A DNA stretch of 11,326 bases from assembly GCA_020833025.1 (NCBI GenBank), contig JAJHRB010000049.1:1-11326 (forward strand), in the 5' to 3' direction. Below the pieces are notes generated by a model that searched no databases, was not told where the DNA came from, and saw only the letters and a program-made list of their open reading frames with translations. Shown one piece after another: positions 9,246 through 10,934 of the stretch. This stretch comes from Thermoproteaceae archaeon (GTDB taxonomy: Archaea > Thermoproteota > Thermoprotei > Thermoproteales > Thermoproteaceae). Made by a program: the position numbers and the translations under genes. Every line of letters starts with the position of its first letter. Within the stretch, counting starts at the first letter, position 1.

Positions 9246-10184
9246 TTAAATCGCTGAGCAGTCCCCCTTGCCGAGTGCCGCGAGGGCGCCCCAGTACTTA
9301 GTCGCCAGCAGGTGGCACGCGTGGCACATGTGCTTCACCCCCTCCCCCTCGTTGAACTTGCGCACTAGCGCGTGCGGGCCCAGCAGTCTGAGGTACCATA
9401 TGAGCGCGTTCCTGCGTATTCTGTCAACCACGTCCCAGAGGTGCTCCCTCTTGATGTTGCCAACCCTCGTGAACCAGCCGGAGGCGGGGTCCGCTATTAT
9501 GTGGCCGCAGCAGAAGGCAACGTCGCCATTCGGGTGTACGGAAATCTCGGCACCCGCGTAGGCACACCCGCCCACTAGAGGCGCCCTCATGCTCGCCTTA
9601 TCGTACAGCACTGAAGCCCTGGACGTGGGAGAGATAAAGTCCTCTATGATTAGCACGTCGCCGCTCAGATCGCTCAGACGCTCCCTGACGTACTCGCCTG
9701 TGATTCTGGAGCTCAACGTCTTCGTTACAGCGATTGCGACTCTGAGGCCCTCCTCTAGTGCGGCTTTAACAGCGTTGAGCACATTATTCTCTCCCCCGCA
9801 CATACTGAGAAATTCTGCGTGAAAATCGTCGTACGAGACATTCAGCTCCTCGAGGCCTAGCGATGCCCATTTCCTCACGCTCGCCCTGGCCCTCTCTAGC
9901 GTGCCCGCCCACCATGCGTTTGTTATAAGCCTTACAGTAAAGCCGTAGTCGTGCGCTGTCTTTATGGCAAGTTCTAAGTGCTTTGGGAGCAGTGTGGGCT
10001 CTCTGCCCGTTATTGCTATCACTTGAATTGTGGCTATCTCAGAAGCCTCCCGGATAACCTTCTCGATATATTCAGTCGGCAGAACTTCACTGTGATGGGG
10101 GCCCGCGCCTATGCTGCAGTGGCTGCACGAGAAATTGCACTTGTAAGTATAGAGCAGACCCAGGGCTGTGACGTCGAAAAACAT
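9246..10184 (-). CDS. Radical SAM protein, YydG/EpeE-like peptide-modifying enzyme
   Basis: 312 aa. CxxxCxxC (CNFSCSHC), TIQVIAITGREP, LITNAWW, VSYDDFHAEF, and C-terminal GCAY..HPNGDVAFCCG..NALIWYLRLLG..MCHAC. Preceded by GGGGG RBS-like sequence. Confidence 0.88.
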   Translation of the reverse strand: MFFDVTALGLLYTYKCNFSCSHCSIGAGPHHSEVLPTEYIEKVIREASEIATIQVIAITGREPTLLPKHLELAIKTAHDYGFTVRLITNAWWAGTLERARASVRKWASLGLEELNVSYDDFHAEFLSMCGGENNVLNAVKAALEEGLRVAIAVTKTLSSRITGEYVRERLSDLSGDVLIIEDFISPTSRASVLYDKASMRAPLVGGCAYAGAEISVHPNGDVAFCCGHIIADPASGWFTRVGNIKREHLWDVVDRIRRNALIWYLRLLGPHALVRKFNEGEGVKHMCHACHLLATKYWGALAALGKGDCSAI

Positions 10185-10190
10185 AGCCCC

Positions 10191-10433
10191 CTAGTAACAC
10201 ACTACTGCGACATCCACTACTGCTGCTACGGCAGGCGTAACACGCGATACCACTATTGCAGGTACTGCTAAAACGGCTACTGCAAGTAAGAGAATGCATT
10301 CAAGGGGCTCCGCGCCCGGTGAGAGGCGATAAGATGATATTGCGCGGCTGCAGCCGCAAGCCGCGAGCTCCCGCAATTCATTCGTTGCCTCTTCGCGGCT
10401 GAGCAGAAAAATATCTATGTTTTTATTGCTCAT
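10191..10433 (-). CDS. 80-aa peptide with Ala/Val-repeat hydrophobic C-terminus; candidate RiPP precursor
   Basis: Fills the gap exactly: 3 nt after the upstream stop and 6 nt before the radical SAM ATG. Charged N-terminal leader-like half and a hydrophobic AV-repeat half. Confidence 0.65.
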   Translation of the reverse strand: MSNKNIDIFLLSREEATNELRELAACGCSRAISSYRLSPGAEPLECILLLAVAVLAVPAIVVSRVTPAVAAVVDVAVVCY

Positions 10434-10436
10434 TGC

Positions 10437-10934
10437 TCACAGTGTTGTTACAATTTCTTTAATTAACTTTGTGTATCTAAGAACTTTCATCTTACCCTGT
10501 TTCTTGGCCATTTCCATGACCTCATCAAAGATTCCTATATCATCTCTCTTTGTCGTGGTGTAGGTGAGCCACTCCAGATCGGTGGCGTACGCAAATACGC
10601 GCCACTCACTCCTGTCAATAACTATAGAGGGGGCTAAAGCGTCCGCAAAGGATCCGCGCAGCACGTAAAATCTTATGAGACGCTCCTCGCCGCCGCGCGA
10701 GACGATGACGTCACCGCTCAGCAGCTCGTTCGTCTTAAACTCTTTCCTCAGCAGATTGCGCAACTCTACGCACACTCTGTCGCCGCTTTTCGGCACCGGC
10801 GCGTGGCTTTTTGCCAGCGCAAGTATGGGCGCTAGCCCGGCAAACGCCATGCTGCCCAGCAGTACATTGTAGAGGAGCTCGCGCCTTCGCATTACAACTT
10901 CGGTCGCACTCCTTGCGCTCTGCTCAACAGACAT
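10437..10934 (-). CDS. Putative Tat-exported protein of unknown function (true start may be ATG 10892)
   Basis: MRRRELL followed by a hydrophobic stretch and an ALA cleavage-like site. First gene of the operon. Confidence 0.7.
   Translation of the reverse strand: MSVEQSARSATEVVMRRRELLYNVLLGSMAFAGLAPILALAKSHAPVPKSGDRVCVELRNLLRKEFKTNELLSGDVIVSRGGEERLIRFYVLRGSFADALAPSIVIDRSEWRVFAYATDLEWLTYTTTKRDDIGIFDEVMEMAKKQGKMKVLRYTKLIKEIVTTL

Follow-up and report, generated by a model that had tools for sequence, protein, structure and literature searches.

A candidate EpeE-like radical SAM gene cluster for a modified hydrophobic peptide in a hyperthermophilic archaeon of the Thermoproteaceae

The contig JAJHRB010000049.1 of a Thermoproteaceae archaeon (assembly GCA_020833025.1), analysed here over its full 11,326 nucleotides (nt) and referred to as the window, carries six neighbouring genes which we read, with a probability of about 0.5, as an accessory cluster for a ribosomally made, post-translationally modified peptide (RiPP) of hydrophobic character. 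Two of these genes are of particular importance, one encoding a radical S-adenosylmethionine (SAM) enzyme whose nearest known relative, by sequence and predicted fold, is the peptide epimerase EpeE (also YydG) of Bacillus subtilis, and the other encoding a small peptide of 80 amino acids (aa) directly upstream of it, which, to judge from the modelled complex of the two, is probably the substrate of this enzyme. In the next paragraphs we focus on the evidence for the enzyme, the peptide and their interaction, and then weigh the alternatives; where single relatives have to be told apart, L-numbers denote the related loci compared and G-numbers the related genomes.

The kinship of the enzyme was judged by ranking hidden Markov models (HMMs) and structures in NCBIfam, in a profile search of the PDB and in Foldseek. 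In Pfam the protein matches Radical_SAM and, weakly, SPASM, and its best NCBIfam model is TIGR04078 (YydG epimerase), which is matched near full length with 94.4 bits, followed by MoaA with 52 bits. The same model is the top NCBIfam match for all 11 close homologues (best E value 8.4e-30, next family about 1e-14). When a profile of the enzyme family is compared with the PDB sequences, EpeE scores 100.9 bits over 282 positions (E 6e-28) and the next protein, SkfB, 22.8 bits, so that the likeness to EpeE is far above chance. An AlphaFold2 (AF2) model of the enzyme, built from an alignment of 110 family representatives, reached a predicted local distance difference test score (pLDDT) of 94.7, and the nine best Foldseek matches of this model are all EpeE chains, with template modelling (TM) scores of 0.76-0.81 and E values of about 1e-18 (best match TM 0.80, E 1.5e-18). 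After a clear gap they are followed by SkfB (TM 0.61, E 1.6e-10), and also by CteB, PqqE, SuiB and MoaA. A preliminary description of this DNA, made from the sequence alone, had likened the enzyme to EpeE/YydG and had proposed comparing it by HMM with this and other radical SAM families; the ranking of the 11 homologues, the PDB profile, the fold match and the cysteine discussed below all bear this comparison out.

The preliminary description had further claimed that the motifs of the enzyme follow those of EpeE/YydG along its length, and each of them could indeed be aligned to the EpeE chains with HMMER. The pairs are, for the window enzyme and EpeE respectively, TIQVIaiTGrE and TIQVIsfTGgE, LITNawW and LISNgfW, SYDDFHAEF and SYDEYHAPF, and HpnGdvafCC and HhdGeiypCC, to which an N-x-L...LR...G helix and a C-terminal CxxC (C287/C290) are added. 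The CX3CX2C motif (C16/C20/C23) is invariant in the 110 representatives, as are C207, C225, C287 and C290. C226, which follows C225 in the CC pair, is kept by 107 of these 110 representatives and aligns with position 248 of the EpeE chain, which we take to be C223 on the assumption of a 25-residue tag (a chain of 344 residues against a native length of 319). In EpeE, C223 is the hydrogen-atom donor (PMC13012085), and C226 is thus a putative H-donor in the window enzyme, in agreement with the original remark that the CC pair includes this residue. The extended twitch domain of EpeE holds a single auxiliary cluster (PMC13012085; PMC8326336), and the four extra invariant Cys of the window enzyme would be enough for one such cluster, as in EpeE, in a predicted C-terminal domain of the twitch type.

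The second element is the small peptide. In more than 15 archaeal and bacterial loci, and in the archaeal relatives wherever that stretch is intact, the enzyme gene is immediately preceded, at the same place and in the same frame, by a small open reading frame (ORF) whose product has a hydrophobic C-terminus; the search for homologous clusters that had been suggested at the outset therefore found this arrangement in both domains. An N-terminal F-x-L motif followed by acidic residues is common to 14 precursors from archaea and bacteria (for example DIFLLSREE, DLFVINDE, RIFELSDSE and (K/R)(E/D)FEL(D/E/N)), and in the window peptide this leader motif spans residues 4-20 (10374-10424), while the hydrophobic, Val/Ala-rich core comprises approximately residues 46-80 (10194-10298). 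The cores vary widely in sequence and have their composition in common. In the window core the Val fraction is 0.34, compared with a mean of 0.13 in the hydrophobic windows of the genome, none of which (0 of 112) reaches it; in the most hydrophobic 35-residue window of the close relatives' peptides Val accounts for 0.29-0.37, and none of the 112 genome windows reaches 0.31. Leu is depleted in the cores (0.00-0.17 versus 0.21 in the hydrophobic windows of the genome). The gene is present in a single copy in the genome, the precursors of close relatives measure 74-108 aa, and the 80-aa peptide has no NCBIfam or Pfam match at E values up to 0.1. For an orthologous peptide pair, the ratio of non-synonymous to synonymous substitutions (dN/dS) is 0.35, and 0.21 in the core, which indicates that the ORF encodes a protein under purifying selection. 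In its upstream placement, conserved leader, variable core and purifying selection, the peptide behaves like a RiPP precursor. As a side observation, the precursors of L004 and L011 are identical and their enzymes near-identical.

The interaction of the two proteins was addressed by folding enzyme and peptide together with two [4Fe-4S] clusters and SAM, in three runs and with three controls. The complex scored 0.74 (runs 0.81, 0.74 and 0.74), compared with 0.51 for the best of the three controls; the contacts of the runs agree by at least 35%, and the pLDDT of the partner is at least 42. The mark applied to such models, which the pair passes, is reached by 58 of 80 solved complexes and by 2 of 110 mismatched pairs. 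In the modelled interface, residues 4-20 of the peptide, that is the leader with F9 and L11, lie on residues 237-241, 254-262 and 298-306 of the enzyme, which supports a predicted docking of the leader motif on the C-terminal domain.

Taken as a mechanism, the 80-aa precursor would bind the enzyme via its N-terminal F-x-L leader, on the C-terminal iron-sulfur domain (twitch or 'T-SPASM'-like). The enzyme would then, as EpeE does, abstract the C-alpha hydrogen from Val, Ala or Ile residues of the core, and a hydrogen would be returned from the opposite face via Cys226, converting L-residues into D-residues. Removal of the leader, export, solubilisation or self-protection would be handled by the other four proteins of the cluster, namely a CPBP-type intramembrane protease, a 174-aa membrane protein ('mem'), a protein with a putative signal for twin-arginine translocation (Tat) and a divergently encoded membrane protein ('div'), and the product would act on membranes, probably against related archaea. 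We infer epimerisation of core Val, Ala and Ile as the most economical mechanism and hold it to be slightly favoured by the evidence; that the product is secreted and membrane-active is a more tentative proposal, to which we give somewhat less than even odds. More speculative, and rather unlikely in our estimation, is the idea that many, perhaps alternating, core positions are epimerised, giving beta-helical ion channels like those of gramicidin or polytheonamide, with the gene cassettes described below as toxin-specificity modules swapped between strains. If true, such ion-channel peptides would have a convergent second ribosomal route, in hyperthermophilic archaea and thermophilic bacteria.

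The enzyme belongs to a family which, by its sequences, is a large, uncharacterised sister family of EpeE in archaea and bacteria. An exhaustive profile search returned at least 554 clusters (at 50% identity) at E values up to 1e-30 and 2897 at E values up to 1e-10, and hundreds of these clusters outscore what EpeE would score in the same search. Among species-representative genomes, full-length members with 30-41% identity occur in Pyrodictiaceae, Desulfurococcales, Thermoproteales and Halorussus; bacterial members in the same range of identity come from the thermophilic Bacillota Desulfotomaculum, Caldicoprobacter oshimai, Desulfothermobacter and Hydrogenibacillus, and further ones from Thermogemmatispora (Chloroflexota) and an Alteromonas. 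Judged by this distribution, the family is not specific to archaea. Compact bacterial clusters, in which the enzyme lies between two membrane proteins, are found in Bacillota (L032, L033, L034, L036 and L046, at about 1500-5800). They consist of a membrane protein of 168-216 aa resembling the bPH_5 proteins of L007, the enzyme and a second such protein, with precursors of 65-76 aa that start with M(R/K)(E/D)FEL (L032, L033, L036) and, where complete, an ORF of about 580-590 aa resembling an ATP-binding cassette (ABC) exporter; their expression should be easier than that of the archaeal clusters.

The features of the locus are collected in Table 1. The preliminary description had proposed an operon of the Tat-signal protein, the 80-aa peptide and the radical SAM enzyme, and these genes do follow each other on the minus strand, with gaps of 3 nt (Tat gene to peptide) and 6 nt (peptide to enzyme). 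Its span of 9246-10934 therefore holds three real genes and is only part of the unit, which conserved synteny widens to 7904 on one side and beyond 10962 on the other, such that 'mem', the CPBP gene and 'div' belong to it as well. The gap between the enzyme and 'mem' is 21 nt, and the genes of 'mem' and CPBP overlap by 8 nt; all six ORFs of the window are open. The contig is that of a hyperthermophilic archaeon, with genes for aIF-2 beta, for an archaeal leucyl-tRNA synthetase and, next door to the cluster, for reverse gyrase (1173 bits, cut-off 472), the last of which supports the earlier assignment of the host to the hyperthermophiles. The 27 AT-rich bases between the divergent starts suggest overlapping back-to-back promoters, probably with leaderless transcripts. 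Scans of the window for tRNAs and Rfam families gave nothing at default or gathering thresholds.

Table 1. Features of the cluster in the window, with the basis of each assignment.
Feature	Position	Strand	Basis
Radical SAM enzyme, 312 aa, EpeE/YydG-like	9246-10184	minus	Pfam, NCBIfam, PDB profile, AF2/Foldseek
Precursor-like peptide, 80 aa	10191-10433	minus	synteny, leader motif, composition, dN/dS
Putative Tat-signal protein, 165 aa	10437-10934	minus	RR motif, TatC in genome
'mem' membrane protein, 174 aa	8700-9224	minus	conserved synteny, alignment
CPBP/Rce1-like intramembrane protease, 267 aa	7904-8707	minus	PF02517
'div' membrane protein, incomplete at contig end	10962-11326	plus	alignment, divergent synteny
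AT-rich spacer, 27 bp, between divergent starts (Tat gene / 'div')	10935-10961		read from sequence
Low-GC variable cassette	9542-11326		composition profile, sliding identity
Codon 61 AGA (Arg) in GGE motif of enzyme	10002-10004	minus	110-representative comparison
1-nt deletion versus L001 and L002 in enzyme gene	9266-9267	minus	DNA alignment

Between reverse gyrase and the CPBP gene lies a stretch of about 1 kb (6842-7903) without a convincing ORF, for which ARAGORN and Rfam (gathering threshold) were negative. By BLAST, 6327-7677 is 92-98% identical to L001 and L002, and in a 100-nt scan about 7627-7842 is only 38-50% identical.

Several accessory proteins accompany the enzyme and its presumed substrate. 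The CPBP protein matches PF02517, a family of intramembrane proteases of the glutamate type, with 51.3 bits (cut-off 22.4), and the three catalytic motifs EEYGWR, WGLWH and HGGVN, corresponding to the pattern EExxxR, FxxxH and HxxxN, are intact in its translation. Its gene is linked to that of the enzyme in L002, L004, L008, L012, L014, L016 and L026, thus spanning two differently arranged archaeal subclades and a haloarchaeal relative, and L038 holds an ORF that is CPBP-like by visual similarity. Abi/CPBP proteins are bacteriocin immunity or processing factors in Firmicutes, and the window protein is a candidate leader protease or immunity protein. In the bacterial clusters and in some archaeal ones its place is taken by ABC exporters, of which that of L007 is a fusion of ABC_membrane and ABC_tran by Pfam and the other bacterial ones were judged by ORF size and sequence; no ABC transporter was found among the proteins of the window in the Pfam search. 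The 'mem' protein, conserved directly downstream of the enzyme, combines N-terminal hydrophobic, likely membrane-spanning segments with a C-terminal domain and is a candidate immunity or export partner. The window protein itself has no Pfam match, and distant counterparts of it flank the bacterial enzymes; of the two in L007, one matches bPH_5 at E 2.5e-15, and the other stays below the threshold with an E value of 0.011. Full-length homologues of 'div' measure about 155 aa and carry conserved Cys in the C-terminal domain; they are encoded divergently in L001, L002, L003, L005, L008, L012 and L013 and stand beside an enzyme remnant in L014 and L016. No relation between 'mem' and 'div' was detectable with hhalign (probability 0.5%). 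The place of the 174-aa membrane protein behind the enzyme is taken, in a second archaeal subclade, by a conserved protein of about 50 aa (L012:1311-1472, L011:1320-1484, L014:2436-2588, L016:2180-2335); with two predicted membrane segments and the motif VYVYxE[IVL]Y, it is a candidate immunity or partner peptide.

In the Tat-signal protein the RR pair is invariant among 10 of 10 homologues and is followed by a hydrophobic stretch and ALA, and TatC is encoded in the genome (136.8 bits). The Tat-signal models of Pfam and NCBIfam gave no match, and the language-model matches to Tat-signal clusters all lay below 0.9. The mature domain is predicted by AF2 to form a six-stranded sheet with two helices (residues 54-165, pLDDT approximately 79-97 per 10-residue block), for which no known fold was recognised: Foldseek against the PDB returned E values of at least 0.1 (nothing at 0.001 or better), and the highest Z that VIA-align gave over 48,161 chains, 6.9, falls inside the noise range stated for this tool. 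The possibility that this protein is the substrate of the enzyme was considered and rejected, since most bacterial clusters do without it, and so does L004, a locus near-identical in all else to L011. The two loci (L004:4100-4750 and L011:2738-3307) differ by the presence of a 189-aa Tat-signal gene, which suggests that this gene is dispensable or was recently deleted. A known defence system was likewise rejected as an identity for the cluster, as PADLOC gave only weak viperin-core matches for the enzyme and none for the other five proteins.

The composition of the locus changes within the cluster, the GC content falling from 65-70% in the flanks to about 52% across 9500-11000. Identity was followed in sliding windows against two metagenomic relatives with the same flanks (L001 and L002). 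Compared with L002, the segment 7843-9541, comprising CPBP, 'mem' and the C-terminal third of the enzyme, is 84-99% identical per 100-nt window (all but the first 90-99%), followed by about 62% at 9542-10141 in the rest of the enzyme, about 40% in the peptide and about 55% in the Tat protein and 'div'. Against L002 the breakpoint falls at about 9541/9542 and against L001 at about 9941/9942, in both cases inside the enzyme gene. From these drops we conclude that the low-GC part, which holds two thirds of the enzyme (the N-terminal ones) along with the precursor, the Tat protein and 'div', is a cassette swapped by recombination among near-identical strains, and that peptide, Tat protein and 'div' travel together in it. 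Of 61 related genomes, only nine hold recognisable copies of the cluster, and five of the nine have a broken or truncated copy, in one case besides an intact one: the copies of G000, G005, G012 and G047 are intact, that of G046 ends at a contig end, and split or truncated copies are seen in G002, G004, G013, G056 and, as its second copy, G012. The patchy occurrence, the decay and the exchange of alleles are consistent with an accessory locus related to competition, and the swapped low-GC cassette together with the frequent pseudogenes suggests ongoing conflict at the level of strains. Decay can be followed in single relatives. In L001, a 4-nt deletion cuts the precursor to 49 aa (L001:1821-1970), and frameshifts split both the 'mem' gene and the CPBP gene (L001:3008-4322). 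L005 (GCA_026414425.1; the protein is named Pyrobaculum aerophilum at NCBI) holds a cassette remnant at 4801-5947, in which the Tat gene is a 64-aa fragment, the precursor is missing and the enzyme, shortened at its N-terminus, is broken into two pieces.

A number of observations weigh against the reading of the locus as a RiPP cluster with an epimerase, some of them in favour of one of the alternatives and introduced with these in the paragraphs that follow. Most generally, a shared fold and a conserved Cys are insufficient proof of epimerisation. The passing score of the complex may partly reflect likeness to solved EpeE-peptide structures, which apparently hold fragments of the substrate, including the epimerised Ile12, and no leader (PMC13012085); in addition, one control reached the 0.51 given above, and the peptide's own fold is uncertain. 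Finally, 'mem' and CPBP, which are presumed to serve in immunity or processing, are encoded in the conserved flank and show no co-variation with the peptide.

The alternative that survives best concerns the window copy rather than the system, namely that this copy has lost its function and is decaying, in a system that otherwise works, which we consider an unlikely yet serious prospect. The enzyme carries TG-R-E in place of TG-G-E, with Arg for the second Gly of the GGE motif, and this Gly at position 61 is found in 109 of 109 other representatives; Arg61 is the sole position at which the window enzyme departs from a residue shared by 93% or more of the other representatives. The GGE motif is SAM-binding, through contact with the methionine moiety of SAM. 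Moreover, the 1-nt deletion shifts the frame near codon 305, and as a result the enzyme ends about 22 residues early, at its 312 aa compared with 322-341 aa in its homologues; in the relatives the tail of the enzyme overlaps the start of the next gene, and in the window it stops 21 nt short of 'mem'. Both changes, Gly61 to Arg and the truncated tail, may impair the allele, and related loci decay as well (L001; with broken copies in L005, G002, G004, G013, G056 and the second copy of G012). Against this stand the six open ORFs, the intact state of every Cys ligand and of C226, and the poor conservation of the lost tail in the family. The single substitution is perhaps tolerated; Arg61 may be an inactivating change, and both it and the deletion may be errors of the assembly.

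The same pair of enzyme and precursor could also be the site of another chemistry, such as a C-C or C-S crosslink, a dehydro residue or a change of the backbone, an alternative which we rate as improbable. Epimerases and sactisynthases both begin with abstraction of the C-alpha hydrogen and differ in the fate of the radical (PMC8326336), and the window enzyme is only about 19% identical to EpeE. The equivalog cut-off of TIGR04078 is 300 bits, which neither the window enzyme nor any of the 11 close homologues comes near; the enzyme is therefore placed in a separate sister family, specifically EpeE-like in its sequence yet outside the curated YydG equivalog. The residue aligned to D210 of EpeE, which is mutated in PDB 8AI6, is E213 in the window, and this column is variable in the family (T/S/N/Q/E). 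A crosslink would find possible partners in the four Cys of the window peptide and in the Trp, Tyr or Phe of many other cores. However, Cys is not conserved, being absent from the precursors of L004, L012, L017 and L018, and aromatic residues are nearly absent from the window core, so that there is no conserved crosslink partner; the lack of Cys in these orthologous precursors also argues against thioether (sactipeptide) chemistry as the reaction of the whole family, which we rejected on this ground. The Cys aligned to the H-donor of EpeE is, by comparison, kept in nearly all representatives, and the four extra invariant Cys would provide for one auxiliary cluster, whereas SPASM domains typically hold two (PMC13012085).

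It is about equally improbable that the small hydrophobic protein stays in place as a membrane or tail-anchored protein, which the enzyme modifies for a housekeeping or envelope role, with no secreted antimicrobial involved. The hydrophobic C-terminus, which is long enough to span the membrane, could be a mere membrane anchor, the leaders of L024, L026, L040 and L047 are 100-190 aa long and resemble folded domains, three of the neighbours are membrane proteins, and the window has no dedicated exporter. These points are countered by the patchy distribution and frequent pseudogenes in close relatives, by the exchange of the cassette between strains, by the fused ABC exporters of bacterial relatives and by the Val-rich, Leu-poor composition, which is unlike that of the ordinary hydrophobic segments of the genome. 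Lastly, a cofactor or small-molecule radical SAM enzyme (MoaA-like or viperin-like) with an unrelated small ORF nearby is very improbable. The weak MoaA, viperin and NirJ matches that speak for it (E 1e-14 to 1e-10) are confined to the N-terminal radical SAM core at about residues 5-160, and the match to EpeE runs over the full length and exceeds them by about 50 bits. Elsewhere the genome has a second radical SAM match, which is MoaA-like (G000:C28), and the linkage of small ORF and enzyme holds in two domains of life.

The reading as a RiPP cluster with an EpeE-like enzyme would extend a chemistry which, in the literature searched, comprises the epipeptides of Bacillota and the proteusins of cyanobacteria and sponge symbionts. 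The preliminary description knew of no characterised archaeal example, and we found neither an archaeal epimerised RiPP nor a paper on this enzyme family in the literature searched, from which subscription journals were mostly absent. Together with its relatives in Thermoproteales, Desulfurococcales, Pyrodictiaceae, haloarchaea and thermophilic bacteria, the cluster defines the large EpeE sister family described above, and as this family has a recognisable type of precursor, the idea is directly testable by co-expression. If true, it would add D-amino-acid peptides to the chemical ecology of archaea and provide thermostable epimerases acting on long hydrophobic stretches.

Among the known systems, the closest is the epeXEPAB (yydFGHIJ) locus of B. 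subtilis, with the EpeE structures PDB 8AI1-8AI6. The predicted fold of the window enzyme is the same (TM 0.80), and shared features are the CX3CX2C motif, Cys enough for one auxiliary cluster, the CC pair with the Cys aligned to C223, a precursor gene directly upstream of that of the enzyme, a membrane-embedded protease in the cluster and a hydrophobic core, which in the window contains Val, Ile and Ala, Val and Ile being types that EpeE epimerises. The precursors differ, EpeX having 49 aa and two epimerised sites and the window peptide a core of 30-40 residues, about one third of them Val, with a different leader (F-x-L); with its greater length, its divergent leader and core and no match to this family, the 80-aa peptide is not a precursor of the EpeX/YydF type. 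In the window, a CPBP protein replaces the epipeptide locus's own protease gene, an ABC transporter is missing, and a putative Tat-exported protein and two membrane proteins are added. Epipeptide loci have been reported only from Bacillota species (PMC8326336), whereas the host of the window is a hyperthermophilic archaeon.

SkfB, CteB and AlbA-type maturases are also radical SAM peptide maturases with C-terminal iron-sulfur domains and are the next-best structural matches, but SkfB and CteB match the window enzyme much less well (TM 0.60-0.61; 22.8 bits for SkfB), and the maturases of sactipeptides and ranthipeptides depend on Cys donors within the core, where several of the orthologous precursors have none. 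The CPBP/Abi proteins of bacteriocin loci correspond to the window protein in the PF02517 domain, in the three intact motifs and in the position beside the gene of a hydrophobic peptide.

The preliminary description had called the cluster epipeptide- or proteusin-like. The first part stands, given the EpeE-type enzyme; the second does not, as the peptide has no match to NHLP or Nif11 leaders in Pfam and NCBIfam and the enzyme is EpeE-like and carries four extra invariant Cys. Epimerases of the PoyD type, by contrast, have the radical SAM cluster only and a C-terminal RiPP recognition element (RRE), and their precursors bear nitrile-hydratase-like leaders (PMC8326336). What the window peptide does have in common with the proteusins (PoyA/PoyD, polytheonamides) is the very Val/Ala-rich core. 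In polytheonamide, a core of this kind carries epimerised residues at alternating positions and makes a channel through the membrane (PMC8326336), and the D-residue-containing, membrane-active product proposed for the archaeal cluster would be analogous to it.

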